Assembly (NCBI GenBank): GCA_963745035.1
Contig: CAVUVW010000010.1
Location: 128,001 to 192,000, forward strand
DNA: 64,000 bases
Direction of reading: 5' to 3'
Source of the DNA: an uncultured delta proteobacterium
GTDB taxonomy: Bacteria; Desulfobacterota; Binatia; UBA9968
Under the pieces are notes generated by a model. That model was not told where the DNA came from. It worked only from the letters and a program-made list of their open reading frames with translations, and did no database searches. Positions within the stretch are counted from its first letter, which is position 1, and every line of letters begins with the position of its first letter. Below, piece after piece: positions 2,883-45,400 of the stretch. Both the position numbers and the translations under genes were made by a program.

Positions 2883-3869
2883 TTACTTGTTCACCGCATC
2901 GATAAAGCCGCTCTTTTCGAGCTGTTCGACGACCGAGAAGTCAACGAACTGTTCCGGTTTCGGCAGAGGTTTTTTCCCCGCGAAGTGGTTTTCGACCAGG
3001 AACTGCACCGCCTTCAATGACGGCCGCGGGGTTTTCTGCAAGGTCGGTGCGTAGTCCTGCCAAGTTCCTTCGAGTATCTCGTCATCGCTAATTTTGCCGT
3101 ATTTGGCGAGGACCTTCTTGCTGAATGCCTTATCAGTCCGGTACCGGTGCATTCCGCGGGTGAAGCCGCGTAGGAAACGAACGGCTGTGTCGCGGTTTTG
3201 GTTGATGAAGGCTCTGGTCGTGATTACAGTGCCGTTGATGTCTTCGACGCCGAGATCAGCGAAATTGATCAGCTCGCGCATACCGAGCTGCGCTGCCTTA
3301 GGGTACAGCGGAAAGCTCAAAGCGCCGGCTTGAATGGCGCCGCTCTGCAGCCCCGCGAAAACTTCAGGCTGCGCCCCGAAAGAAAGCAGGGCGACGTCTT
3401 TGTTCGGTTCCAGATTGAATTTCTTGAGAGCGATCCGAACCACTTGATCGGAAGTGGAGCCGAAAGTCGTGATGCCGGCTTTCTTCCCTTTCAAGTCCGC
3501 CGGCTGCCTTATTTCGGGGCGAACCATCAAACGAAAGGGGGACACAGTTCCGGTGGCGCCGATGATCACGACATCGCCGCCCGCGGCAGTGGCCGCGACC
3601 GCCGCGGCGGCGCCCGCTTGTATGATCGGCGCGCTGCCGCCGAGCATGGCCGCGACCATGCGCGTGCTGCCGCCGACGCGAATCAATTCGACGTCCAGAC
3701 CCTCATCCAGAAAATAACCGGCTTCTTTGGCAATCCAGGCGGTCGCCCACGAACCGGCGAAGCTGGGGTAGAGGAGCCGCATCGGCATCGGCGCCGAGGC
3801 TGCGAAAGCGGCCGCGGGTACCAAGACAGAAACCATAGATAGAATGATCGTTCGCAACGTTCTTGACAT
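2883..3869 (-). CDS. ABC transporter substrate-binding protein, NitT/TauT (SsuA/THI5-like) family
   Basis: Signal peptide, AKEAGYFLDEGLDVEL, DLKGKKAGITTFGS motifs, RBS GGAGG. Confidence 0.9.
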   Translation of the reverse strand: MSRTLRTIILSMVSVLVPAAAFAASAPMPMRLLYPSFAGSWATAWIAKEAGYFLDEGLDVELIRVGGSTRMVAAMLGGSAPIIQAGAAAAVAATAAGGDVVIIGATGTVSPFRLMVRPEIRQPADLKGKKAGITTFGSTSDQVVRIALKKFNLEPNKDVALLSFGAQPEVFAGLQSGAIQAGALSFPLYPKAAQLGMRELINFADLGVEDINGTVITTRAFINQNRDTAVRFLRGFTRGMHRYRTDKAFSKKVLAKYGKISDDEILEGTWQDYAPTLQKTPRPSLKAVQFLVENHFAGKKPLPKPEQFVDFSVVEQLEKSGFIDAVNK

Positions 3870-3902
3870 GCATACCTCCGTGCAAAGGTTCGAAAGGGTG
3901 AT

Positions 3903-4151
3903 TCAGTTCAGTTCCCGTTTCCAGCGACTTCGCGAAACAGTCGCATAAAATTTCCGCCGATGATTTTTTGAATTGGCGCCGTCGGTCGAGTCCGCGAGTA
4001 GCGCTTGGTCGCCAAGTAACGCGCGCAGCAGAGTCGAATCGATGAACACCCCGCCAAGTCCCGCGACGAGGAAGCGAAAAAATCCGCGCCGTGCAATCGA
4101 AGGATGGGCGGCGCGAGACGTTTGCCGTTGAGCTGGTTCGCGAGCAGTCAT
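3903..4151 (-). CDS. Small hypothetical protein with twin-arginine-like motif
   Basis: 82 aa from ATG 4151; IARRGFFRFLVAGLGG resembles a Tat signal; co-oriented upstream of the binding protein. Confidence 0.4.
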   Translation of the reverse strand: MTAREPAQRQTSRAAHPSIARRGFFRFLVAGLGGVFIDSTLLRALLGDQALLADSTDGANSKNHRRKFYATVSRSRWKRELN

Positions 4152-4246
4152 TGAAATTGTTTGTGACGGGGATGTCTTCCAAATTACACGGCCCTTGTTC
4201 GCATCCGGCACCTCGGCCATGTAAAAAGGAGCGCAGGCGATCCAGG

Positions 4247-5470
4247 ATGCAGCGTGAACATACATCAAAGCCGGCGCTTTTGAAAAGTTCGCAGGAGCGC
4301 CCGGCCGGCTCGGCTTTCAAAGCGCAACTCGGGCCGGTTTATTTTCTCGTCGTCATCTTTTTGCTCAACTTCGTTTCACGCATCATTCTCTCGCCGCTGC
4401 TGCCGACGATCGAAAAAGAATTGGCGATCACCCACAGCCAGGCTGGCTTTTTTTTCTTTTTGACTTCCGGCGGCTATCTGGCGGGGTTGTTGTCCTCCGG
4501 TTTGCTCGCGTCGCGCACGAGCCATCGAGTGACGATCGTCGTTGCCAGCGCGGGCGTCGGCGCCGCGATGTTAGCCGTCGCCTTTGCCGGCGGCTTGGGC
4601 GTGATGCGCTGCGCGCTTTTTAGCGTCGGATTCGCCGCCGGCCTTTACATGCCCTCGGCGATCGCCACCATCACGGCTCTGGTCGATCGCCCGCACTGGG
4701 GCAAGGCGATCGCAGTGCACGAGCTCGCGCCCAACCTGGCATTCTTTATAAGCCCGTTTATCGCCGAGTTGTTTCTCAAATGGGCGAGCTGGCGGTCGGC
4801 ATTGGCCGTTCTGGGCGCTTTGTCGATTCTTGCAAGCGCTGGGTTTGCGCGGTTCGGCAGGGGCGGCGAGTTTCCCGGAGAGTCGCCGCTATCGAGCGCA
4901 TTCGGCGCGCTCGCCCGCATACCGACATTCTGGCTGATGATCATTCTCTTTGGCTTCGGCGTGAGCTCGACGGTGGGCGTATACGCGATGCTGCCGCTTT
5001 ATCTGGTTACGGAACGCGCCTTCGATCCGAGCTGGGCGAACACGATTCTGGCATTTTCCCGTTCCCATGGTCCGATTCTCGGACTACTCGGCGGCTGGGC
5101 GTCCGATAAACTCGGCGCGGGACGCACGATGGTCATTAGCTTGGGATTCACCGGGATCACTACGTTGCTGTTGGGTTTGCTTTCGGACGCGGGCCTCGGC
5201 GCTGTGGTGCTGGTCCAGCCATTGGTTGCCGTGTGGTTTTTTCCCGCGGCCTTTGCGGCGATCGCCATGATCACCCCGCCCAACGCGCGCAATCTCGCGG
5301 TGTCGTTCTCGGTGCCGTTCGGATTTCTTATCGGCGGCGGTCTGATTCCCACCATGATCGGGGCGATGGGCGATGCCGGTTCCTTCGCGACCGGATTCGT
5401 GATCACCGGCTCGCTTATTTTTTCCGGCGGGTTGTTGGCGCTGACGCTGAAATTGCCGGAGAAAGCGTGA
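4247..5470 (+). CDS. MFS transporter
   Basis: About 12 hydrophobic segments, loop motif GWASDKLGAGR; start placed at MQREH. Confidence 0.9.
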   Translation: MQREHTSKPALLKSSQERPAGSAFKAQLGPVYFLVVIFLLNFVSRIILSPLLPTIEKELAITHSQAGFFFFLTSGGYLAGLLSSGLLASRTSHRVTIVVASAGVGAAMLAVAFAGGLGVMRCALFSVGFAAGLYMPSAIATITALVDRPHWGKAIAVHELAPNLAFFISPFIAELFLKWASWRSALAVLGALSILASAGFARFGRGGEFPGESPLSSAFGALARIPTFWLMIILFGFGVSSTVGVYAMLPLYLVTERAFDPSWANTILAFSRSHGPILGLLGGWASDKLGAGRTMVISLGFTGITTLLLGLLSDAGLGAVVLVQPLVAVWFFPAAFAAIAMITPPNARNLAVSFSVPFGFLIGGGLIPTMIGAMGDAGSFATGFVITGSLIFSGGLLALTLKLPEKA

Positions 5471-5511
5471 CGCGGTTGTCTTTGCCGCACCGGCTGTTCT
5501 ATAGATTCTTC

Positions 5512-6267
5512 ATGATGACCTTGAATGATTTTGCCGAGAAAATGCGCGCGAGCGAGGATATCGTGGTTTTTACCGGCGCCGGCATCAGCACGGAATCCGG
5601 CATTCCCGATTTTCGCAGCCCCGGCGGCATCTGGACGCGCTATCGGCCGATCACGTTTCAGGAATATATCAGCAGCGAAACAGCACGAATCGAGGCGTGG
5701 AGGCGGCGGCTCGAGGGTTGGGAGCAGTACAAGAACGCCAGACCGAACATCGGCCACTATTTCATCCAGTCGCTCGATGCCAAGGGCAAGCTGATCGGCT
5801 TGATTACGCAGAACGTAGACGGTCTCCACAGTGCAGCTGGTCTTACGGAGGAGAAAATCGTCGAGCTGCACGGCAGCAACCGGCAGGTGCTCTGTTTGAG
5901 TTGCGAACGGACTTACGATCCCGACGAAATCATCCAGCGGTTAGTCGGCGAATTCGAGTCGCCCAAGTGCAGCGCTTGCGGCGGCATCCTCAAGTCCGCG
6001 ACGGTGTCGTTCGGCCAAGCGATGCCGGAAAAAGCCATGCGCCAGGCGCAAGAGTGGACCGCGCAGGCCGAGGTGTTCGTCGTGATGGGATCGTCTTTGC
6101 AAGTGCAGCCGGCGGCGTCGTTTCCGATGACGGCGAAGCGCAATGACGCGCTGCTGGCGATTATTAACCGGGAGCCCGGCCCGCTCGACGACGTCGCGGA
6201 CTTCGTGCACCACGGCGCCATCGGCGAATTTTGCGCGCGCTTCGGCGAGATGATCGCCGACGGATAA
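5512..6267 (+). CDS. cobB: Sir2-family NAD-dependent protein deacylase
   Basis: GAGISTESGIPDFRS, TQNVDGLH, ELHGS, two CxxC Zn pairs, GSSLQVQPAA, IINRE. Confidence 0.92.
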   Translation: MMTLNDFAEKMRASEDIVVFTGAGISTESGIPDFRSPGGIWTRYRPITFQEYISSETARIEAWRRRLEGWEQYKNARPNIGHYFIQSLDAKGKLIGLITQNVDGLHSAAGLTEEKIVELHGSNRQVLCLSCERTYDPDEIIQRLVGEFESPKCSACGGILKSATVSFGQAMPEKAMRQAQEWTAQAEVFVVMGSSLQVQPAASFPMTAKRNDALLAIINREPGPLDDVADFVHHGAIGEFCARFGEMIADG

Positions 6268-6338
6268 ATCGAAGCAGATACACCACGAAGTGATTCATGA
6301 GCTCATGCTCGTCCGCAGATGCTGAAAATACGTGCGAA

Positions 6339-6408
6339 AGATTCCTCACATCCGTTCGGAATGACAACAACAGTAGACAAATGTCATTTCAAAGGAAGTG
6401 AAAAATCT
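6339..6408. repeat. Inverted pair of degenerate REP-like elements
   Basis: AGATTCCTCACATCCGTTCGGAATGACA followed by TGTCATTTCAAAGGAAGTGAAAAATCT. Confidence 0.45.
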
Positions 6409-6432
6409 TCTATCTGTTATTTCAAAGGGAGG

Positions 6433-6500
6433 CCGCGAAGCACACGAAGATCTCAAATAGACGTAATCCAAACTTCGTGATCTTCGTGAACTTCGTGGTG
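6433..6500. repeat. CACGAAG/CTTCGTG 9-nt tandem plus inverted microrepeat
   Basis: CGCGAAG CACACGAAG, spacer, then CTTCGTGAT CTTCGTGAA CTTCGTGGTG. Confidence 0.75.
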
Positions 6501-6542
6501 TGTAAGGAAACCGTGACGAGCGCGCGATAAAGAGGAAACGTT

Positions 6543-7547
6543 ATGACTGATTGGAAACTGATCGACGCCGACGGCCATATCCGCGAAGTGGAAAGCGACG
6601 TATTCGAGTATCTGCCCGATTATTACAAGAGCCGGCGCGAGGCGGTGCTCTATTTCCCGCTGTTGCCGCACCATGGCTGGCACCGGCAAGCCGGGCGCGC
6701 CGGCATCGGCGCTTCATTTATGATTCCCACGCTGGAAGATTGGCGCCGGGCCCTCGACCAAGGCAACATCGAAGCCGCCGTCGTCTATCCCACGCGCTTC
6801 ATGCATATCGGCCAAGTCGGCATGACCGAGTTCGCGGTCGATCTCAGCCGCGCGTACAACGATTATCTGCACGACCGCTTTCTCCGACCGGAGCCTCGCT
6901 TGAAGGGCATCGCCGTGTTGCCGCTGCAGGACGTGGCCGCGGCGGTCGCCGAGCTGCGCCGGTCGGTGAAAGACTACGGCATGGTCGGTGGCCTGCTGCC
7001 GGCCGACGGCTTGCCGCGCCCGCTCGGCCATCCGGAGTTCCATCCGCTCTACGAAGAGGCCAATCGGCTCGGTTGCATGCTGGCGGTGCACTCGCAGAAC
7101 TCTCTGCGCAACAACGATCTATTCATGTGGCGCGGCGAAGCCGCGACGCTCGCTCACGTCTGGCCGCAGATGCGCCAATTTACCAACCTGATGTTTTCCG
7201 GTCTGCTCGGGCGGCTGCCCGACTTAAAAATCGCCTTTCTCGAAGCGGGCTGCGGCTGGGTGCCCTATTTGATGAGCAAGATGGGCGCGCGCATGGGCGA
7301 GGCCTTGCCGCCCGCGAAGTTGATCGAGCGCGGGCAAGTCTATTTTCAGTGCGGCGAGGAGATGACTACGGCCCGCGATGTGGAGCTGCTCGGCGATGAA
7401 TGCTTGTTCTGGGCGTCGGACTTTCCGCACGAAGGCATCGTCGATATGAGCAAGGCGGTGGACGAATTCTTGCGCCGGGAAGATCTTGCCGAGGGCGCGA
7501 AACGCAAGATCGGCTACGACAATCCGAAAAGGCTTTACAGACTTTAA
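6543..7547 (+). CDS. Amidohydrolase_2 family protein (metal-dependent hydrolase/decarboxylase)
   Basis: IDADGH, AYNDYL, AVH, FLEAGCGWVP, WASDFPH, GYDNPKRLY. Confidence 0.9.
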   Translation: MTDWKLIDADGHIREVESDVFEYLPDYYKSRREAVLYFPLLPHHGWHRQAGRAGIGASFMIPTLEDWRRALDQGNIEAAVVYPTRFMHIGQVGMTEFAVDLSRAYNDYLHDRFLRPEPRLKGIAVLPLQDVAAAVAELRRSVKDYGMVGGLLPADGLPRPLGHPEFHPLYEEANRLGCMLAVHSQNSLRNNDLFMWRGEAATLAHVWPQMRQFTNLMFSGLLGRLPDLKIAFLEAGCGWVPYLMSKMGARMGEALPPAKLIERGQVYFQCGEEMTTARDVELLGDECLFWASDFPHEGIVDMSKAVDEFLRREDLAEGAKRKIGYDNPKRLYRL

Positions 7548-7611
7548 AAATTGGCTCCAAGGTTCCAATGATTCAGCTGTTCCAAATGGTCGAAATCCCG
7601 AGTATGTTGCG

Positions 7612-7635
7612 AAGGTGAATACAAAGGTGAATACA
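7612..7635. repeat. Perfect 12-nt tandem repeat AAGGTGAATACA x2
   Basis: Seen directly in the sequence; lies next to degenerate GTTCCAA units at 7555-7592. Confidence 0.7.
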
Positions 7636-7739
7636 AATGACGCGCGGTAGTCCATAGCCTCTGTGGTTTGCTACGTGCAACAACGTTCGGAACCTGCCTA
7701 TTTCGGTTCATTAAAAACATTATACAAGTTGAGTGTGCG

Positions 7740-8507
7740 ATGAGGGGAAGTCGGTTCGCATCTGCTTCGCTATTTTCGATCTGCTTCCTTGTTTCCACGG
7801 CAGGGGCTTTCGGAACTTCTATTGTCATTATTAGGACCCCTCGAGAGATAGTCGTAGGCGCTGACAGCATGACCACCATCGAGGGACGGGCACCAATCCA
7901 GTCCTGCAAAATTCATAGGCTCAAAAATGGCCTTTACTTTGTTTCAGCCGGTTATGCCAATGATCTTTTGGCCGGCGGGACCTATGACGTTGTGCACGAA
8001 GTCCATCAGGCAGCTGGCGAGGCTCAATCCTTAAACGCAGCTGTTGATGCTACCAGAGTCGCTTTCCGAGCGGCTTTCTTACAGCAACTCGAACAGCGCC
8101 GTTTACAAGAACCCGATCACTTCGAGCGCAATTTTTATCGATTACGGATAGTGCAGGTAGCCCTTTTTGGCATAGAGCAAGGTGATCCGATCGTAGAAAA
8201 ACTCACGTTCAGAGCATTTAACGAAGTACCCGATCTTCGAATAGAGAGTCACAGGGAGCGGTGCCCAGGTGATTGCCCTGGGGATGTGGCCCCTATCTTC
8301 ATTGGAGAAGAGCAAGCCATGCGCAACCATATCGGCGAAACCGAATTTCGCGAGCGCGACTCTCTGACGTCGATAGCAGAGAAGCTAATTCACGTGGCTA
8401 TATCAGCGAGTCCGAACACTGTCGGTCCGCCCGTTGTTGTCTTTCGCCTTCAAGAGCGAGGCGCTTCCTGGGTAAAAGGAGAAACTATCTGCCGCCACGC
8501 TCAATAG
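7740..8507 (+). CDS. Predicted exported proteasome-beta/HslV-like Ntn-hydrolase-fold protein
   Basis: Signal-like MRGSRFASASLFSICFLVSTAGAFG, then TSIVIIRTPREIVVGADS (T1, D17), SCKIH (K32), VSAG, C-terminal TVGPPVVVFRL; visibly lower GC than flanks. Confidence 0.65.
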   Translation: MRGSRFASASLFSICFLVSTAGAFGTSIVIIRTPREIVVGADSMTTIEGRAPIQSCKIHRLKNGLYFVSAGYANDLLAGGTYDVVHEVHQAAGEAQSLNAAVDATRVAFRAAFLQQLEQRRLQEPDHFERNFYRLRIVQVALFGIEQGDPIVEKLTFRAFNEVPDLRIESHRERCPGDCPGDVAPIFIGEEQAMRNHIGETEFRERDSLTSIAEKLIHVAISASPNTVGPPVVVFRLQERGASWVKGETICRHAQ

Positions 8508-8544
8508 AACCGATTCACAAAGTAAATAGTCGGAACGCCTGGAC

Positions 8545-8940
8545 CTAAGCCTGCTCGACGTTAGATTCCCTCTGCGCCTGTCGCAAGATATCTTTGCGCG
8601 TCACGTAGTCGATGATCTGGATTTTTTCCGCCGGTCCCGAGCGGTTACCCATCATGATCATCGGCCCGTCGCCGGTGTTCTCCAGCGTGTAGAAAGAACC
8701 CCCCGTGATCAGCGCGGCCTGGCCGGGCTTTAACGTCACTTTGCCGCCGTCCGGAAAGCTCATCGTGCATTCGCCGTCCAAGACGACGAAAGTCTGATCG
8801 GCGTTGTGGCAGTGCATGGAGTCTTTCTGTCCGGGCTTATAATAATGCATCCAGGCATGAAAGCGCGGCGTGTTGAAGACGTTTTTGCGCTTTTGTTCCG
8901 TGTGCGCCATTTCCATTAGATCGATCACTTCGATGCTCAT
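8545..8940 (-). CDS. Cupin domain protein
   Basis: MHCHNADQTFVVLDGEC and LKPGQAALITGG cupin motifs. Confidence 0.85.
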   Translation of the reverse strand: MSIEVIDLMEMAHTEQKRKNVFNTPRFHAWMHYYKPGQKDSMHCHNADQTFVVLDGECTMSFPDGGKVTLKPGQAALITGGSFYTLENTGDGPMIMMGNRSGPAEKIQIIDYVTRKDILRQAQRESNVEQA

Positions 8941-8958
8941 GACAAAATTCCTCCTTTG

Positions 8959-9339
8959 TTATAAGACTGCGATCACTTCGATTTGGAACAATACTTCACC
9001 GCGCAGCTCCGCCTTGAGCGCGTGCCGCGCCGGCCGGTCGTGCTCATCGGGAAACATCTTGAGCCATGCTTTGTTCACCGCATCGCGCAGCTTTTCCTCT
9101 TTCAAGTAAACTTTCATGTAAGCGATATCGCCGGGCGCACCGCCGGCCGCTTCCATGAAGAGATGCAAATTGCGAAACATGGCGGCGGCTTGCTCGTCCG
9201 GATCGGGCGAGAGCACGCCGGTCTTGGCGTCCTTGCCCGAGATCGCCGAAGAAAAAATCATGTTGCCGATGACCGCGCCGTTGGGTATCGGCGCGCCATG
9301 TTCCATGCCTTTGATGTGAAGGCTTTTGCGTTTTGCCAT
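8959..9339 (-). CDS. RidA/YjgF/YER057c/UK114 family protein
   Basis: GNMIFSSAISG, FPDEHDRPARHA (conserved Arg), FQIEVIAV. Confidence 0.88.
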   Translation of the reverse strand: MAKRKSLHIKGMEHGAPIPNGAVIGNMIFSSAISGKDAKTGVLSPDPDEQAAAMFRNLHLFMEAAGGAPGDIAYMKVYLKEEKLRDAVNKAWLKMFPDEHDRPARHALKAELRGEVLFQIEVIAVL

Positions 9340-9430
9340 TGTCGCCTCCCGCTCTCTCGCCAGATTGTTTGACTCATAGCATGAGCCGCGCGTGAACGTC
9401 CACAGCGCTGCTTAAGCGATCCCCTTGCAT

Positions 9431-10213
9431 CTACGAAGCAGTCAAGAACTGCGCGACCGCGGCACAAAATTCATCGGCTGCTTCGGCGTGGATCCAGTGG
9501 CCCGCCCGAGGAATCGTTTTCAATTCGGCGCGTGGAAAGACTTCACGAATGGCGGCGAAGTCGTTGTCTTCGATGAAGCTCGAATGTTCGCCGCGAATGA
9601 AACAAGTGGGCTTCGGAAACGGTTTTTCCACGACCACCGCCTCGGTGAGAGCGCTGTAATTGTCGATGATCTCGGCCAGGCCGATGCGCCAGCGAAACTC
9701 CCCGGCGGAATCGCGCGCGAGATTTTTCATGACGAATTGCCGGACCGCCGTGTCGGCGATCGCCGGAGCGAGGGCGGCGTCGATCTCGCCGAAGGATTTA
9801 TATCCGCGCAGATCGATGCCGCGCATGGCCAGAAGCAAAGGGCGGTGCGCCGGAGGATACGCCTTGGGCGCGATATCGACGACGAGCAGGTTTTCGAGTA
9901 GGTCGGGATATCGAGCAGCCAGCGCCATCGCGACTTTTCCACCCATGGAGTGGCCGAGCACGGCCAGCGCGTGAAGACCTTGCTCTTCGCAGCACTCGCG
10001 CACGTCTTGCGCCATAACGGCGTAGTTCATGACCGCGGAGTGCGGCGAATGGCCGTGGTTGCGCAAATCGAGGGAGTAAACTCGGCGAAGCGCGGCCAGT
10101 CGCTTGCTCATGGACTGCCAATTGTCGAGAGAACCGAGCAAGCCGTGGAGAATGACCAGCGGCTGGCCGTCGCCCCGGACTTGGAAATGAAGACGCATCG
10201 TTTTCACGGGCAA
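9431..10213 (-). CDS. Alpha/beta hydrolase, YbfF/ABHD11-like esterase
   Basis: LHGLLGSLDNW, DLRNHGHS, GHSMGGK, VVDIAP, AGHWIHAE; true start may be the ATG at 10198. Confidence 0.9.
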   Translation of the reverse strand: MPVKTMRLHFQVRGDGQPLVILHGLLGSLDNWQSMSKRLAALRRVYSLDLRNHGHSPHSAVMNYAVMAQDVRECCEEQGLHALAVLGHSMGGKVAMALAARYPDLLENLLVVDIAPKAYPPAHRPLLLAMRGIDLRGYKSFGEIDAALAPAIADTAVRQFVMKNLARDSAGEFRWRIGLAEIIDNYSALTEAVVVEKPFPKPTCFIRGEHSSFIEDNDFAAIREVFPRAELKTIPRAGHWIHAEAADEFCAAVAQFLTAS

Positions 10214-37362: not shown

Positions 37363-38343
37363 TCAGATCGGCGCCGGCGAGTCGAGCTCGAAGCCGAGAT
37401 CCGAGATCATCCGGTGAGCATCGGAGGCTTCCTGTCCGGGCGTGGTCAGGTAGCCGTTGACGAAGATCGAGTTCGCAGGATAGAGGCTTAGCGGCTGGAG
37501 CGAGCGCAGGTTCACTTCCCGGCCGCCGGCCACGCGAATTTCCTTGTCAGGGTTGACGAAGCGAAAAAGACAAAGCGTTTTTAAGCAGCGCTGCGGAGTG
37601 AGCTCGCGTTTGCCTTCGAAGGGAGTGGCCGGAATCGAATTGAGAAAATTCACGGGAATCGAGTCGATGTCCATCGCGCGCAGGGTCAGCGCCAGGTCGA
37701 TGATGTCTTCGTCGCTTTCGCCCATGCCGATGATGCCGCCCGAGCAGGTGCCGATCCCGGCGTGCTTGACGTTTTCGATCGTGGCCACGCGGTCGTCGTA
37801 GGTGTGGGTGGTGACGATCTCCGGATGGTGCGCGCGGCTGGTGTTCAGATTATGATTCACGCGGCCAACGCCCGCATCCTTGAGCTTTTCGGTCTTGTCC
37901 TGATTCATGAGGCCGAGGGAGCAGCACACGTTCATACCGGTTTCTTTGCGGATCTCGCGCACGGCGTCGGCGATGTCGTCGATCTCTTTGTTGGTCGGGC
38001 CCCGGCCGCTGTTGACGATGCAAAAGCGCACCGCGCCGGCGGCTTTCGCCTGCCTGGCGCTTTCGACCAGCTTTTCTTTGGCCATGAACGGGTAGCGGTC
38101 GATGGGCGCTTCGGACACCGAGGATTGCGAGCAATAGTGGCAATCTTCGGGGCAGAGGCCGCTCTTGGCATTTTGCAAAACGTGGATCTGCACGCGCTTG
38201 CCGTAATAGCGATGGCGCACTTTGAAGGCCGCGCTCAAAAGCTCCGGCAGCTCCTCGTCGCCCGCGTCGAGGACGGCTTGCAACTCCTCGCGTTCGGGGA
38301 TGATGCCTTGAAGCGCTTTGTCGGCCAACTGCTGAAAATCCAT
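37363..38343 (-). CDS. bioB: Biotin synthase
   Basis: Radical SAM CPEDCHYCSQS, RFC, CCSLG, NHNLNTS, CSGGIIGMGE, SIPVNFL, IRVAGGRE, ANSIF..YLTT. Confidence 0.96.
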   Translation of the reverse strand: MDFQQLADKALQGIIPEREELQAVLDAGDEELPELLSAAFKVRHRYYGKRVQIHVLQNAKSGLCPEDCHYCSQSSVSEAPIDRYPFMAKEKLVESARQAKAAGAVRFCIVNSGRGPTNKEIDDIADAVREIRKETGMNVCCSLGLMNQDKTEKLKDAGVGRVNHNLNTSRAHHPEIVTTHTYDDRVATIENVKHAGIGTCSGGIIGMGESDEDIIDLALTLRAMDIDSIPVNFLNSIPATPFEGKRELTPQRCLKTLCLFRFVNPDKEIRVAGGREVNLRSLQPLSLYPANSIFVNGYLTTPGQEASDAHRMISDLGFELDSPAPI

Positions 38344-38374
38344 TTCGATCCTCCAAAAAATCAGACGATTTTTA

Positions 38375-38839
38375 TCACGCGTGGTCGGGCCTTTGCAAAT
38401 ATGCGTCACGAGCGACGAATCTGCCCCAGAGGTACAAGAAAGCCGCCAAGACGAAGTGGAAAAAGATCGGTATAGCGCCGCCGAGCCAGCGCATCTCAGG
38501 AAGGAAGATCATCGTCAGCGCGTAGCGCAGCGCCATGCTGCCCGCGTAAGCAGCGCTGAAGCCGATAAGAAAACGCGACCAAGATGGTCGCGTAGCGGCG
38601 AAGAAGCCTGTGCCGCGCCAAATGTCCGACGCAATTTTGATCATCACCACGATCATAACGATCTGAATCGTTAGAAGGGCGGGATAGGGGATGAGACCGG
38701 AAGCCCATTCCTTGCTCGACGGCAGCCAATCGACTGAAAAGAATACGACGAGAGCTTGGCCCAACACTCGAAAGAGGAAAAGCAATGTCAGGAGCGCGAG
38801 AACATAGCCATACATCCCTGGCTTCAATGTGGGTTTCAC
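38375..38839 (-). CDS. Hypothetical 4-TM membrane protein
   Basis: GTGA overlap with the GH3 stop (alternative ATG at 38815); LFLFRVLGQALV, WASGLIPYPALL, IPIFFHFVLA. Confidence 0.75.
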   Translation of the reverse strand: MKPTLKPGMYGYVLALLTLLFLFRVLGQALVVFFSVDWLPSSKEWASGLIPYPALLTIQIVMIVVMIKIASDIWRGTGFFAATRPSWSRFLIGFSAAYAGSMALRYALTMIFLPEMRWLGGAIPIFFHFVLAAFLYLWGRFVARDAYLQRPDHA

Positions 38840-40519
38840 GGCTGGGATTCGTCGGCGCACTGCACGATCAGTTGAATCTCGCTTGGATCTTCCGGCACGG
38901 CGGTCAAGAGCGCAGCTTTGAACTGGACGTCGCGCGCGCCGCTCTGGACGTTCGCGTCGGTTTTGCGCTCGAACCAGCCCGAGCTCATGACCCAAAGGAC
39001 CGGCGCGGCTAGCCGGCGCGACTCGCGCTTTTGGGCATATTCGATATTGAGTTTGCGAAGGCACGCGTCGAACTCGCGCAGCAGCCGCGATAGTTGCTCT
39101 TGATCAGGCGAGGCACCGTGCAATTCCACGGCGAAGGCGTAGAGCGATCTTTCCACGTCGGCACAGGCGCGAAAGTGTCGCAAGGCGACGCCCGCGGCGC
39201 TCTGCGCCTGCGCCATGGCCTCAATGACTTGATTGACGTGAAGCTTCTCGCCGGTGATGTTGGTTACATCGCGGCCTTTGCGCACGAACTCGATCAAGCG
39301 GGGTGCGGTTGTAAAAGCCGGCGACGCGAACCACGTCGTTGATATCGTAGCGATAGAGCCCGCCGGGCGTCGTCAGGATCAAATAGTAGCTCGCGCCCTC
39401 CTCGAGCTCCGCGCAGGTGAGAACCGTCGGCATGGGCTGCCGATTTCTGACTTCGGGAATGAACTCGTAGAAGTTTTCGTCGACGGCGAGAATGCCGGCG
39501 GAACCCGTATCGGAGATCGGCAGGGTTATTTGCGCTTCGCTCGCCATGTATCCGAGGTCGCGCACCGGGGTCTTGTCTGCCGAACCAGCGGGCGAATTCC
39601 TTCAAGCGCGTGCCCACCGTGCCGCCTTTCCAGCAGCCGATGAGCTGCAGTCGCGGCCAATATTCTCTCGGGCGGAGCGTGCCGTCGTACTTGATCAAAG
39701 ACTCCAGTCGGCGCGCGCGCGCGGGGTTTTTGCCGAGACGGCTCGCCAGCGCTTTGCGCAATTCCGCCGGCAGGCTGCAACCGGGACGGATGGTGCCGTC
39801 GCGAATGTCTTTGAATGATGTCGTGCTTTAGTCTCGATTCGCGCGTCTCCACCAGCTTGAGAATCGTGCTCGGATTGGGCGTGCCGAAAAACGTAATGTC
39901 GCTGTTCCAACGCGAGGCGCATGGTGAGGTAGTATTTCGCTTCGAAGTCTTTGATCTCGGCGATTTCATAGGGAGCCGCGTAGGCATTCTGGATCCAGCT
40001 CGGACTGCTTTGGTAGATGAACCCCGAAGCGGCGCCGAAGGGGATGCCGCCCGGCGGTTCTTGCCTTCGACCGCGGGACTCACGACGCCGAGCAGCTTGC
40101 CGCTGAAAAGATCGGGATGGTCGAGCAGCGCGCGATGATACCAGAAGCGGGTGAGCTGGCGATGGTTGCGGCGCGACGCTTCGGTGACCGGGATCAGCTT
40201 GGGTTGGCCGGTGCTGCCGCTGGTCATCGCGAACATCAGCGCCGGCTCCGCGGTCAGCACGTTCGTTCTCGCCGTTCTGGGCGCGCTCGACGTAGGGACG
40301 CAGGCGCTCGTAGTCGCCGATGGCGACCTGCGCGCGATATTCGCGGAGAGAAGCGATGGCGTCGAAATGATGATCGCGGCCAAAGCTCGTGGCGCGATTG
40401 CGCGAGATCATTTTAAGCAGGAGCTTGTTCTGAACTTCTTCCGGTTTGGCGGTGAGGCTCTGCCAGCGTGCCCACTGGCGTTCGGTCAGGAATGCGGCGG
40501 CTTTCAGCAGAAGGGCCAT
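38836..40519 (-). CDS. GH3 family acyl-acid amido synthetase (ANL superfamily); multiple 1-nt frameshifts
   Basis: Colinear GH3 motifs across frames: YERLRPYV, FAMTSGSTGQPKLIPVT, GYMASEA, GLYRYDINDVV, FVRKG..TGEKL. Confidence 0.85.
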
Positions 40520-40525
40520 GACATC

Positions 40526-42399
40526 CTAGCGGTGTATTTCGTGCTTTGCGCCGGCGAGGCGTTCCAGGGCGTCGTCTCTGACGGTGACGCTGAGGCCGCG
40601 CGTTTTGAGCAAGCGGCGCGCGCCCGCCGAGTCCGAACGCGACGTTTTCGAAGGTGACGTCTTCGGCTAGCAGCCAGGTGCCGAAAGAACCTTCGGCGCA
40701 TTGCGAGCTCGGGTAAATGCGCCGCGAACGTGCGTCCGGCGGCGGACAAGATTCCGGTTTCGCCCACCTGCGCGCCGACTTGGATCTTGATGCCGGCTTG
40801 CTGCGCCAATTGGGCGATCGCCAGACTGCCGCTGATGCCGCCGCATTTAGAAAGCCGGATATTGAACGAGTCGCAAGCGCCGAGCTCGATCAGTTGGCGC
40901 GCCTGCGCGACGGTGACGAGCGATTCGTCGGCCATGACCGGAATGCCGCAACGATCGCGCACCTGCTTCATGCCGGTGATATCGCCGGCGGCTACAGGCT
41001 GCTCGATGCATTGGAGCTGGAACCTGGCGAGGCGGTGGAGATGCTCCACCGCTTGTTCGGCAGTCCACGCGCCATTGGCGTCGGCACGCAGCTCGACCTC
41101 GGCGCCGACCGCTTTGCGCACGGCTTCCATGCGCGCAAAGTCATCGGCGCCGCCGACCTTGACTTTGATTTGCCGCAGTCCCAGGCGCGCCATCCGTCTT
41201 GCGAGAGCGGCCGCTTCCGCCGGTGCGTCGGCCGAGATCACGCCGCTGTAAACGACTTCGAGGCGGCTGGGGGGAAGTAAATCCGCCAGGGCGCAATGGT
41301 CGGCGCGCAGCGCCCAATCCAGAAGCGCCAGCTCGACGGCGCAAAAAGCGGCGTTCCACGCAACCACGCCGGAGCCGTTTTCCTGCTCCGTCCACTGCGG
41401 CATGACGCTCTCAAGATATTCCAGAGTTTCCCAGCCGGGCGTGAAAGACTCGGCGAAAATCTTCGGCGCCATTCGGTCTTGAATGTGCGCCACCATGGAT
41501 GCCGTCGTCTCGCCGGTTACGTAGGAGCGGGGCAAGCTCTCGCCGTAGCCGCTCCGGCCGTCGGCTGCCGGTGACTTTGACGATCACCGAGTCGCTTTCT
41601 TCGCGGCTTTGCAGCGCATGGCGAAAGGCCTGATGAAACGGGATGCGGAGCTGATAGATCGTGATCGATTCGATGCGCCGCGCTTTTGCCGGCGCGGCTT
41701 TGCTGTGCGTTCGCCGCCGCGACGCCGCGGGAAAATAGTGGCGCACGAACAGGTCGTCGCCAAGAGTGAACGCGGCGATGTGGTCGAAGAGATCATCCGA
41801 GATTTCGATGAAAAGCCAGATAATCCCGCACCACGCTCACGCCTTCCTCGGCATGGCGGATATCGACCTCGGAATGCAGCTCGAACCAGCGCAGCGCCGG
41901 CTTGGCGAAGCCGTACAGATTCATGAGGGCCGCGGCGATCTCGCTCGAACAGCGCGACAGCATGAATTCGAAGCTCATGGTTTCGAGCAACACCGACAAG
42001 CAAAGCTCGCGCAGGGTGGCGACCGGCACGCGCGTCGCGCAAAAAGTCGCGACCCGCCGGCGGGCGTCGACAATCAGCTCGTCGATCTCGCGTTCGGTCG
42101 AAGCCCAGCCCACGCGCCATTTCCAGGAGCAGGGCGGAATGAGGCTTCTCGTCGCTCCGAACCCATCTCTTCCAGGAGATTTTCTTTCAAAAGCGCGGCG
42201 GCGTCGGCAGGAAGCGCGGCGAAGCACAGCGCGACGATGTGCGACGACAGGTAATGGGTGCGAAAAACGTTGCCGATGAATTCGCGCGCGGCTTGCGGCG
42301 ACGGCGTCGCCCGCGACGAGCCCGCGATACTCGGCGGAGCCGCGAAAATCGCGCGTGGCGTTGTCGAAAGCAAGATGTGATATGCTCGACCGAGATCAT
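40526..42399 (-). CDS. Fusion of heme-oxygenase-like diiron (PqqC/CADD-like) domain and enolase-superfamily (MLE/dipeptide epimerase-like) domain; multiple 1-nt frameshifts
   Basis: RBS GGAGG; N-half ENLLEE..H, ETMSFE, HSEVDIRH; C-half YGESLPRSYVTGET, KVKVG, DANGAW, EQP, ADES, NIRLSKCGG, EGSF; linker RHYFPAAS..RIESITIY is open with no stop. Confidence 0.72.
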
Positions 42400-42442
42400 T
42401 GCCCTTCCTCCGGCGCCGCCGATGCGGCCCCGTCTTCCATGC

Positions 42443-45400
42443 TTAGCGATTGGGTGTCTGCGATCGCTCCTGGGCCATGGCCTTGATTCGTCGCAAATCG
42501 ACTTTTCCCGAGCCGAGGAGCGGCAGGGCTTCGACGACGTGGAGATTCTCGCGCTTGGGAATCCAGAGCTTGGGCAGATCGGAGCGATTCAGTTTGTCCC
42601 AAAGCTCGTCCCGGCTCATGCCGTTCTGCGCATAGAATGCCACGAGTTTCTCGCCGCGCTGTTCGTCGGGCAGCGCGGTGACCGCGGCGGCGGGACTGCC
42701 GAGAACTTCGTTCATGGTTTCTTCGACCTTCATGTGCGGCACCATCTCGCCGCCGATCTTGCTGAAACGCGAAATCCGATCGACGATGCGGATGAAGCCG
42801 TCGTCATCGACGGCGGCGATATCGCCGGTCACGTACCAGCCGTGGCGCAGCGCCTGCTCGGTGAGCTGAGGCTGGCCGAGGTAGCCGAGCATCAGATTAG
42901 GCCCCTTCACGAGCAGCAGGCCTTCCTCGCCGGGCGGCAGCGGTCGCTCGCTGTCGCGGTCGACGACTTTGACCGCGACGCCGGGAATCGGATGGCCGAC
43001 GGTTCCCGGCTTGTGGCCGATCTGTTTTTCCGCGCCGTCGAGCACGTCTTCGACGTTGACCGACACGACCGGCGCGAGCTCGGTGCAGCCGTAGCCTTCG
43101 AAGATGGTGATGCCGTATTTCTCTTGATAGCCCTTGGCCACCGGCTCGCGGAGCTTTTCGGCGCCGGCGATCACGTAACGCAGCGAGGCGAACTCTTCCT
43201 TGGTGCAGCGCCTGAGATAGCCGGCGAAGAAGGTCGAGGTGCTGATCAGCAAGGTGGCTTTGTATTTCTGCACGGTCTCGCCGATGGTCTTGGCGTCGGT
43301 GGGATTGGGATGATAGACGACGCCGAACTCCGCCAGGAGCGGCAGCCACAACGTGCCGGTGAACCCGAAGGAGTGAAACAGCGGCAGTACGCCCATGATA
43401 CGATCGCTGGTTTTTAGCGCAATCGCTTGGTGGATGCCTTCGATATTGGCGACGATATTGTGGTGCGACAGCATCACGCCCTTGGGCGCGCCGGTGCTGC
43501 CGCTGGAAAAAATCACGGTCGCCAGGTCGCTCGCTTTTTGGCTTCTCCGGTGGCGGCGGCACAGCCAGGACGCGGGCAGTAAAAACGCTTTGAGAGCGGC
43601 GACTGCTTTTTGCGGCGACGAGAAGTCCTTGCGGAGCTCTTCGAGAAAAACCATGCCGGGGATATTTTCCAGACCGGCTTTGGACAAAAAGACGCGAGAT
43701 GTGAGGATCGTCTCGATGCGGCACTGCTCGATGGCCGAGGCCATCGCTTCGCGGCCGGCGGTAAAATTCAAATTCACCGGCACTTTGCCGGCGAGAAGGA
43801 CGGCGATGTTTGCGAGCGCGCCGCCCACCGAGGCAGGCAGCAACACTCCCACCATCTGCTGTTGTCCGCAGCGCTTTTGGATCCAGCCGGACAACAAGAG
43901 GCTGCCGATCAGAGTCTTTCCGTAGCTCAGCTCGGTGCCGGTGGTGTCGGCCATACAAAAGGAAAACCAGCGCCGCTTCGCGCTTTCGATGAATCTCGTG
44001 TGCAGCAGATCGGCGGCGCTCGGACGATGGTCAAAGGCGTTGCTCTCGAGCACGGCAACGGCCCCCCGCACGTCCGCTGCGGTCGCATCGGAAGGAAGCG
44101 GCGATCCGAAGGAAACCGTGACGGGATCAAACCAGCGCTTGGGCCATTTCCAAAAAAATTTCCCGTCCTTGAAGCTGAAGATGCTGCCCCACAATTGATC
44201 GAGGTGCACGGGGATGATCGGCACCGAGGTGCCTTCGACGATTTTTTCGAAGCCGCGTTTGAACGAGCGCAAACGGCCGTTTCGGCTGATCGCGCCTTCG
44301 GCGAAAATGCACACGACGTGGCCCTTGTCGAGCTCGTTGCGCGCGTGCTTGAGCGATTGCACGATATCGCGCCGATTGCTTGCCGACACCGGAATCGCGT
44401 GCATCAGGCGAAAAAGCCAGTTCAAGAATTTGATGTCGTAATAGTCGCGGTGCAGCATGAAGCGCACCAGCCGCGGCAGCGATCCACCGATCATGAACGC
44501 GTCGACGAAAGAAACGTGATTCGAAACCAGTAGCGCGGGGCCCTGGAGCGGCAGATTTTCCGCGCCGACGACCTTGATACGATACACCGTGTGCGTGAAC
44601 AGCCAGAGGATCAGCCGGACGAAATAATCGGGGAGAAAATAGAGAATCGCCAGGGTGCCGGCCAAGGTCACCAAACCGGTCAGCAAAATGATCGTTTCCG
44701 GCGTGAAATCCAGCGGCGTCTTGAACAGCCAGTGGACCGCGGCGGCGAGCACGATGCCGAGGGTGTTCATGAAATTGTTGGTGGCGATCAATTGGCCTTT
44801 TTCCTCGCGTCCGGCTTTTTGCTGGAGAAAGGCGTTGAGCGGCACGGCGAATAGTCCCGCCGAGAAGCCGAGGCCGACGAGCGCGGCGGCGGTGTGCGCA
44901 TAGGACGGCGCCGAGAGCGCCACCAAGCCGAGACAGATGCCCATGGCCACGGAGCCCAGCGGCACCAATCCCATTTCGATATGATCGCCGGACAGCCGTC
45001 CGGCGGCGAGGCTGCCCAAGCCGATGCCGACCGCCAGGAACGTGCCGAGCAAGCCGATGTGAAACTCATCGAGTCCGAGCAGTTCCTTGCCGAAGAACAG
45101 CATATTGATCTGTACCAGCGCGCCGAGAAACCAGAAATAAGAAATGCCGATCACGGTCAGCCAGAGAGGGCGATCGCGGCGCAGGCGGCGCAGGCCGTCG
45201 ACGATTTCGCCGAACGGATTCAGCCGGAAGAGCTTCGCCGCGCCCGACGGCGCCACCCGGGCGATGCCCTGGCTGGTGAATACTCCTAGAATCGCAATGA
45301 CCAGCATCAACAAACCGATCAACGGCAGGTTGTGCTTCCAAAGCGCAAAGATCGCGCTGCCCATGGACGTGCCGAGGATGATCGCCATGAACGTGCTCAT

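Follow-up and report, generated by a model that had tools for sequence, protein, structure and literature searches.

A heme-oxygenase-like diiron domain fused to an enolase-superfamily domain in a Binatia genome, and the conserved cassette to which the gene belongs

CADD, the 4-aminobenzoate (pABA) synthase of Chlamydia trachomatis (PDB 1rcw, 8va9), is an unfused member of the heme-oxygenase-like (HO-like) diiron oxidases (HDOs) and has no enolase or GH3 partner. HO-like domains also lie inside multidomain proteins, as in the natural PqqCD fusion, where the partner domain is PqqD, and in SznF, where it is reportedly a cupin. Within the enolase superfamily, the N-succinyl amino acid racemase (NSAR)/o-succinylbenzoate synthases and the L-Ala-D/L-Glu epimerases (2p88, 1sja, 1jpm) have a Lys at the end of beta6 and act on N-acyl amino acids or dipeptides, the kind of compound that a GH3 enzyme would produce. 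The bacterial GH3 protein OlsH uses ATP to form N-acyl ornithine from free fatty acid (PMC12493201) and is the amide-forming step of the OlsH-OlsG-OlsI ornithine-lipid pathway of Singulisphaera acidiphila, in which OlsG is reportedly related to phospholipid N-methyltransferases (PMC12493201; review PMC12971839); the Ols operon has neither an HDO nor an enolase. Here we analysed a 64,000-nucleotide stretch (the window) of an uncultured delta proteobacterium (Binatia; UBA9968; GCA_963745035.1, contig CAVUVW010000010.1, positions 128,001 to 192,000 of the forward strand), in which an HDO domain and an enolase-superfamily domain are encoded as a single protein beside a GH3 gene.

According to a 2026 review, about a dozen HDOs have been characterised, and its available part names an enolase partner for none of them (PMC13108848). 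Neither PMC13108848 nor PMC13185094 contains the words fused, fusion, enolase or racemase in its available text. Our literature searches on HDOs with diiron and enolase, on HDO surveys, and on GH3 with mandelate racemase (supplements being outside the search) returned no paper on an HDO-enolase fusion or on the cassette described below. The window protein is a member of both superfamilies and lies outside the characterised families of either.

The fused gene and its two domains

The interval 42399..40526 is one gene for a soluble 621-residue protein that consists of an HDO domain, a basic linker and an enolase domain (Table 1), and it is the fused form of a conserved cassette in which an HDO gene, an Arg-type enolase gene and a GH3 gene follow one another. 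The initial annotation, made from the letters alone, had proposed an in-frame fusion of this kind and had warned that the track of open reading frames (ORFs) would hide it. Both points were borne out. The motifs on which it rested were all located in three minus-strand frames of the interval, ENLLEEMG and DEKPHSALL in two different frames and LLETMSFE with HSEVDIRH in the third, and single-base indels break the gene so that the automatic ORF list splits it into six overlapping pieces. The junction between the domains is crossed in one open, stop-free frame, DDLFVRHYFP-AASRRRTHSKAAPAKAR-RIESITIYQL (also seen as the stretch DDLFVRHYFPAASRRRTHSKAAPAKARRIESITIYQL), after which come the enolase motifs IKVKVG, RADANG, IEQPV, MADES, NIRLSK and AEGSFG. 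Once eight extra bases are removed, the 1874 nucleotides become 1866, that is, 621 codons and a stop. On the broken pieces, Pfam finds MR_MLE_C at 4.4e-48 in a 343-residue ORF and Haem_oxygenas_2 (PF14518) in a 144-residue piece at 28.0 bits, slightly below the cutoff of 28.9.

In relatives the same architecture is intact. The HO piece is present in 14 of the 24 genomes of the genus and in none of the 16 genomes searched from two other families. In nine same-genus genomes (G008, G012, G013, G018, G019, G020, G021, G024 and the unpublished G005) it shares one open frame of 628-996 codons with the enolase piece, and the linker is conserved and open in the six orthologous ORFs of about 620 residues (620-622) that were translated. 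The intact 622-residue protein of G013 (P0001) carries Haem_oxygenas_2 at residues 38-194 (59 bits, cutoff 28.9), MR_MLE_N at 244-374 and MR_MLE_C at 395-609. The best 120 of 1807 database matches are all 619-640 residues long and all contain PF14518 and PF13378; NCBI names them 'enolase C-terminal domain-like protein [Candidatus Binatia bacterium]', and JGI muconate cycloisomerase, L-Ala-D/L-Glu epimerase or epimerase/PqqC. The HDO-enolase architecture is thus already in public databases, under generic or misleading names. A full-length model of the fusion protein has a predicted local distance difference test score (pLDDT) of 89.9 and a predicted template modelling score (pTM) of 0.73, with the linker modelled as a helix (pLDDT 67-69).

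That the two halves are separate genes, with a stop and a start in the linker masked by sequencing errors, is extremely improbable. Indels are indeed frequent in this part of the assembly, and most phyla encode the two parts as separate genes (57 of 73 cassettes, see below), but the linker is open in the window, in a spanning contig from public sequencing runs, in the six orthologous ORFs and in 120 of the 120 listed database proteins, and neither the spanning contig nor the contig variants, when applied, bring a stop or a start into it. The fusion is almost certainly genuine. In a quick, unrooted maximum-likelihood tree of the enolase domain (76 rows, with several long branches flagged), the 18 fused rows, nine Binatia-type and nine Dehalococcoidia, make up one side of a branch with a Shimodaira-Hasegawa-like approximate likelihood ratio test (SH-aLRT) value of 99, a placement that would fit a single fusion event. 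One contig labelled Candidatus Binatia (locus L057) has a split cassette, and its enolase groups with those of Rokubacteria, not with the fused Binatia-type clade. The longest frame, 996 codons holding HDO, enolase and part of GH3 (L009 on G019:C48, 394-3381; also L111), is probably due to an indel near the enolase end rather than a triple fusion.

The N-terminal half is predicted, from alignments and a model, to be a seven-helix HO-like domain with a 3-His/3-carboxylate dimetal site. Its nearest solved sequences are CADD/4-aminobenzoate synthase (5e-4 for a single-sequence query, 1.2e-7 for a 15-row profile), the FlcD-type and BesC entries of the PDB being much weaker matches. The ligands E77/H87, E144 and H175/D179/H182 (P0001 numbering) align to those of CADD, each of the six being either invariant or conserved to at least 90% across 43 family members; the ligand set as defined in PMC13108848 (E...H, E, HxxxDxxH) is complete in the window, in agreement with the six-ligand pattern first read there. 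Modelled from a 43-row alignment, the domain is an all-helical HO-like bundle (pLDDT 94.1, pTM 0.90), the fold on which the initial annotation had made its reading of this half depend. Foldseek against the PDB places CADD first (E 1e-5, template modelling (TM) score 0.66-0.74), ahead of HrmI and UndA, with further matches to RohS, FlcD, PqqC, PqqCD (5vrd), TenA, BesC, the heme oxygenase HmuO and AetD. Although CADD is the closest solved relative by both profile and fold, a CADD-type self-sacrificing pABA synthase was rejected as an identity. The NCBIfam CADD model (TIGR04305) scores 23.3 against a cutoff of 200, and the positions counted as CADD Tyr27 and Lys152, which we take to be the sacrificial Tyr and the amine donor, are mostly Phe and Ile in the HDO family.

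The HDO clade is small, with 106 cluster representatives out of 1.84 billion matching at E <= 1e-3, and most of these stand alone at 224-243 residues. A second, distant fused form (P0135) is 37% identical in the HDO domain. Other partners also occur. In P0185 (572 residues) an HDO relative is fused behind an enoyl-CoA hydratase/isomerase (crotonase) domain, so that this HDO clade is found attached to two different enolate-forming folds. In P0204 (510 residues) the N-terminal HDO part runs directly into GH3 sequence that comprises the middle and C-terminal portions; the protein is either a genuine HDO-GH3 fusion or the outcome of a deletion or of chimeric assembly. In two marine 'Deltaproteobacteria' loci (L093 and L096, about 3400-10000) the HDO comes after an MMPL transporter and a cytochrome P450, with no enolase or GH3, and in L096 an APH-type kinase follows it.

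The C-terminal half is, by sequence and predicted fold, a member of the enolase superfamily that lies outside its characterised families and departs from the MLE subgroup at the Lys of beta6 that defines it. Its best solved sequence relatives are the L-Ala-D/L-Glu epimerase YkfB (3e-41), dipeptide epimerases, N-succinyl Arg/Lys racemase and muconate cycloisomerases; Foldseek on the full-length model finds NSAR 2p88 (TM 0.92 on the target) and also YkfB. Together with 1sja and 1jpm these are the best matches of this half, and they share its KxK and D/E/D residues. KxK (in IKVKVG, at the end of beta2) and the Asp, Glu and Asp ligands are invariant in 76 of 76 rows of cassette enolases and reference. 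The NSAR/epimerase group has a Lys at the end of beta6, the second catalytic Lys of the MLE subgroup, whereas every cassette member has an Arg there, within N-x-R-x-x-K-C-G-G (75 of the 75 cassette enolases that cover the site); the window Arg aligns with Lys268 of Bacillus subtilis YkfB (1jpm), as counted along the alignment. Seven other enolase-superfamily paralogues in the same genome have Lys, Tyr, His or another residue at this place, and none has Arg. At beta8, EGS(F/Y)G is invariant in the cassette enolase alignment, while a canonical Lys-type homologue (L135) has DxD; the Glu of EGSFG aligns with the conserved Glu of muconate cycloisomerases. All the enolase features of the initial annotation, namely KxK, D/E/D, Arg for Lys and the missing DxD, are therefore real. 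With Arg in place of one Lys in every member, this half is a natural experiment on the two-base rule of the superfamily.

No NCBIfam equivalog model comes near its cutoff on the enolase half. An L-Ala-D/L-Glu (dipeptide) epimerase was rejected on scores of 107.8 against 500 and 96.6 against 343, together with EGSFG at beta8, where DxD is the dipeptide epimerase motif. The label muconate/chloromuconate cycloisomerase (TIGR02534; 154.3 against 334.95) was also rejected. A role in aromatic-compound catabolism, with an oxygenase and a lactonising enzyme as that label would suggest, is very unlikely, even though this subfamily is the best NCBIfam match over the full length, the EGSFG Glu aligns with that of muconate cycloisomerases, and many members carry the name at JGI: the score falls far short of the cutoff, the beta6 Lys is gone, and the constant partner is GH3, with no ring-cleavage or ketoadipate genes recurring among the neighbours. 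'Muconate cycloisomerase' and similar public labels are misleading for this family.

Frame breaks in the window copy

The reading frame of the fusion gene shifts eight times in the window copy. Compared with five intact relatives, the window has seven one-base insertions, one two-base deletion and one in-frame three-base deletion, none of them at an obvious homopolymer. We aligned Logan contigs from four public runs of four studies (X1, X2, X4 and X6) over 40400-42500, and they omit one base at each of 40614, 40704, 41566/7, 41808, 42095, 42152, 42303 and 42377/8. The extra base is absent at all eight places in X4 and X6, at six in X1 and at one in X2, the remaining places being uncovered in X1 and X2. 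It is kept by no strain-matching contig that covers the place; at 42303 part of the X1/X6 depth belongs to other contigs. The contig of X6 record 24 covers 40400-41899 with just four gaps, and the linker gains no indel in it. Six contig substitutions tested in this spanning contig cause single-residue changes at most, and none of them introduces a stop or a start. All these contigs derive from other samples or unknown ones and match the window at 90-99% identity.

The eight breaks are very probably a local assembly error patch. Decay is unlikely because almost all events are small insertions, the frame once followed holds no nonsense codon, and every catalytic residue is kept; the aligned pieces of the window protein are 57-85% identical in amino acids to relatives. 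The GH3 neighbour is broken in the same manner, with about 10 small indels from 40267 to 39295 when mapped against five relatives (nine of the 10 frame-shifting events are one- or two-base insertions and the other a one-base deletion), and this too points to a local error patch. A true pseudogene, in which the eight frameshifts here and the 10 or so in GH3 are genuine mutations, is improbable. The breaks are present in the assembly and are confined to two adjacent genes with intact flanks, which would be odd for evenly spread sequencing error. But seven of the eight frame-shifting events are one-base insertions by alignment and all eight are one extra base by comparison with the contigs, the GH3 events are nearly all insertions as well, and contigs from four runs lack every extra base they cover. 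Furthermore, the gene is likewise split, or runs into GH3, in other few-contig assemblies of the genus (G003, G004, G014 and G019), the source assembly itself having 28 contigs. Counting both genes, about 18 indels are concentrated at about 39.3-42.4 kb, and the 1133-residue gene upstream and the genes farther downstream of GH3 are intact, a distribution that resembles a local assembly error patch. Such a patch in a few-contig assembly can conceal a gene from ORF callers.

The HDO-enolase-GH3 cassette and its possible product

Because its genomes are closely related, synteny inside the genus was not counted towards functional linkage. We examined 80 loci from species-representative genomes, retrieved with stand-alone HDO relatives. 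The order HDO, Arg-type enolase, GH3 on one strand is found in 73 of them, split in 57 and fused in 16. Among the seven loci without the full cassette, five are at or near contig ends and two are the P450- and MMPL-bearing loci described above. The 73 cassettes span at least 12 phyla: Cyanobacteriota (24), Rokubacteria (9), Chloroflexota/Dehalococcoidia (9), Acidobacteriota (7), Myxococcota (5), and further Binatota, Omnitrophota, Sericytochromatia, Fibrobacterota, Actinomycetota, Pseudomonadota, Methylomirabilota, Thermodesulfobacteriota and unnamed bins. Because this range includes cultured cyanobacteria (Leptolyngbya sp. PCC 6406, Nodosilinea, Nostoc), the product of the cassette can be sought directly. 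In 28 of the 73 full cassettes the gene after GH3 encodes a membrane protein of about 155 residues with no Pfam family; it is an accessory fourth gene. Variable neighbours include Peptidase_S15-type alpha/beta-hydrolases in 13 loci (cyanobacteria) and ICMT/PEMT methyltransferases in nine.

The oxygenase position is not always filled by an HDO. In 301 Acidobacteriota genomes searched with the cassette enolase profile, 10 gave a match at E <= 1e-60, and eight of these have Arg at the beta6 place. GH3 is in the retrieved DNA for six of the eight; one match is truncated where its contig ends, and another is the already known HDO cassette. The two Lys-type matches have no GH3 within 1.5 kb, and one has a DxD-like ADLDG. 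In two of the six extended loci (L136 and L139) a Pfam FA_hydroxylase gene lies directly upstream of the Arg-type enolase gene, which is followed by GH3, the others having Hydrolase_4 or Peptidase_S15. Gene order, Arg-type enolase (FNLRVSKCGG) and GH3 are as in the HDO cassette, but the oxygenase is a membrane His-box diiron enzyme, and unfused, while the HDO is soluble and HO-like. As FA_hydroxylase occupies the HDO slot in these two loci, the constant core is the Arg-type enolase with GH3, and the oxygenase of the cassette is exchangeable between two unrelated diiron folds. A further Acidobacteriota locus (L140, 7412-9427) encodes a 671-residue protein of Hydrolase_4 (alpha/beta-hydrolase), DUF362 and 4Fe-4S ferredoxin domains beside Arg-type enolase and GH3.

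By analogy with the Ols pathway, the cassette may make a modified N-acyl amino acid or aminolipid, an assignment we hold tentatively, at a little under even confidence. An intact cassette homologue from L039 has all of the GH3 N, M and C domains, and, as in the OlsH type, such a GH3 is encoded beside tailoring enzymes; some versions of the cassette also have Ols-like neighbours, namely an alpha/beta-hydrolase and an ICMT/PEMT-family methyltransferase. Like OlsH, the GH3 enzyme would spend ATP to couple an amino acid with an acyl acid, fatty or otherwise. With O2 activated at its diiron site, the HDO would introduce a hydroxyl group or a double bond into the acyl chain or head group, of either the conjugate or the fatty-acid precursor, and would play the part of the membrane fatty-acid hydroxylase that replaces it in other cassette versions. 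The single Lys of the enolase would take the proton alpha to the carboxylate while Mg2+ and the Arg hold the enediolate, and water would then be eliminated or added, epimerisation being less likely. The fusion would hand the intermediate from one site to the other. A product of this kind would extend the newly found GH3 route to bacterial amino lipids.

Since the two domains are fused, the oxidase and the enolase-type enzyme would act together, which is a clue to the partner of this HDO clade. The initial annotation had called the protein a bifunctional oxidase-isomerase with non-standard chemistry. The two-domain fusion with its ligand sets stands, and so does the non-standard active site, with Arg for Lys and no DxD; the isomerase part is less secure, as a one-base reaction (elimination or hydration) of a one-Lys/one-Arg enolase would be at least as likely as isomerisation. 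In a one-base reaction the Arg would hold charge. For the split enolase and HDO of L039, the predicted binding score has a median of 0.55 (runs 0.55, 0.65 and 0.38), and the best of three controls scored 0.00. Contacts agree between runs to at least 72% and partner pLDDT is at least 85. The binding mark is reached by 116 of 157 solved complexes and by two of 215 mismatched pairs, but scores of 0.60 or less take in only 18 of those 157 complexes and both passing mismatches, and the prediction thus lends weak support to binding of the split pair.

The main rival to the lipid proposal is a small-molecule route, in which the HDO oxidises a free amino acid (as do BesC, HrmI and PolF), the enolase epimerises or dehydrates it, and GH3 ligates it to an acid to give a soluble amide, the product being a signal, a siderophore-like compound or an antibiotic rather than a membrane lipid. 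We consider this rather unlikely. It would agree with the substrates of the dozen or so characterised HDOs, which for the most part are free amino acids or fatty acids of natural-product pathways and not conjugates (PMC13108848). HrmI, a lysine N-oxygenase, is among the closest folds, all three core cassette proteins are soluble, and 45 of 73 cassettes have no membrane partner. However, a membrane fatty-acid hydroxylase fills the HDO slot elsewhere, and the recurrent neighbours of the cassette are acyltransferases, alpha/beta-hydrolases, PEMT-like proteins and small membrane proteins, with no non-ribosomal peptide synthetase, polyketide synthase or similar gene recurring among them. In addition, the sole characterised bacterial GH3 makes a lipid (PMC12493201).

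Besides the substrates of the characterised HDOs, several other points count against an acyl amino acid or aminolipid product. The Arg at the beta6 Lys place has no characterised precedent that could be checked, and the enolase half could bind a ligand without catalysing. The complex prediction is weak, and the public-run contigs demonstrate that the population has an intact gene, which is not strict proof for the copy in this genome. The phyla found here are missing from the OlsHI survey of review PMC12971839. The lipid-type neighbours vary (membrane protein in 28 of 73, Peptidase_S15 in 13 loci, ICMT/PEMT in nine, PlsC mainly in Binatia-type loci), and Rfam at gathering thresholds returned only one tRNA in eight cassette loci, with no riboswitch or other element. 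Gene neighbourhood points to a pathway without telling which one it is. The partners of the HDO clade, that is, the crotonase of P0185 and the P450 and MMPL transporter loci, also hint at acyl or lipid substrates, and the P0185 fusion together with the GH3 C-terminal part of P0204 would be compatible with coupled oxidation and enolisation on acyl carboxylates. A broader proposal, which we regard as possible but doubtful, is that soluble HO-like diiron oxidases were recruited, replacing membrane His-box hydroxylases, into a widespread GH3 pathway beside a new one-Lys/one-Arg enolase branch. Fusions of the HDO clade to enolate-forming folds (enolase, and crotonase in P0185) would then mark a coupled oxidation-enolisation on acyl carboxylates that is unlike the reaction of any characterised HDO or enolase, and through which soil bacteria and cyanobacteria would make an undescribed class of modified lipids of the acyl amino acid type.

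Feature coordinates and neighbouring genes

Table 1. Features of the fusion gene and its neighbours in the window. Ligand and motif codon coordinates were taken by hand from frame translations and may be off by one codon.
Feature	Position	Strand	Basis or remark
Fused HDO-enolase gene	42399..40526	minus	ATG at 42399, stop codon 40528..40526; 1874 nucleotides in the window
HO-like diiron (HDO) domain	41729..42399	minus	C-terminal end ...FVRHYFP; Pfam, CADD alignment, conservation, fold
Linker AASRRRTHSKAAPAKAR	41678..41728	minus	17 residues, basic; single open frame
Enolase-superfamily domain (capping domain and barrel)	40526..41677	minus	Pfam, PDB alignments, Foldseek, conservation
HDO ligand codons, Glu, His, Glu	42169..42167, 42141..42139, 41969..41967	minus	
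HDO ligand codons, HxxxDxxH (His, Asp, His)	41876..41874, 41864..41862, 41855..41853	minus	
Enolase KxK Lys codons	41166..41164 and 41160..41158	minus	
Enolase metal ligand codons, Asp, Glu, Asp	41082..41080, 41004..41002, 40929..40927	minus	
Enolase Arg at the beta6 Lys place	40857..40855	minus	
Glu of EGSFG, enolase half	40694..40692	minus	
Span of the eight extra single bases	40614..42378		alignment to intact relatives and public-run contigs
GH3 acyl-acid amido synthetase gene	38836..40519	minus	Pfam GH3 on fragments; broken; 7 nucleotides downstream of the fusion
Membrane protein, 146 residues	38375..38815	minus	no Pfam family; three strongly hydrophobic 19-residue stretches
MFS, PlsC acyltransferase and AMP-binding protein (LplT/Aas-like), 1133 residues	42443..45844	minus	Pfam; intact; directly upstream of the fusion
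Radical SAM and BATS gene (biotin-synthase-like)	37363-38409	minus	after the cassette

For the 146-residue membrane protein, a protein atlas search gave nothing beyond 'hypothetical protein' clusters. The radical SAM and BATS gene also occurs in the Binatia-type loci and not in those of other phyla. The MFS-PlsC-AMP-binding protein is adjacent in the Binatia-type loci L105-L113, and the Omnitrophota locus L048 encodes a protein of partial similarity to it at a distance of 2.5 kb from GH3.

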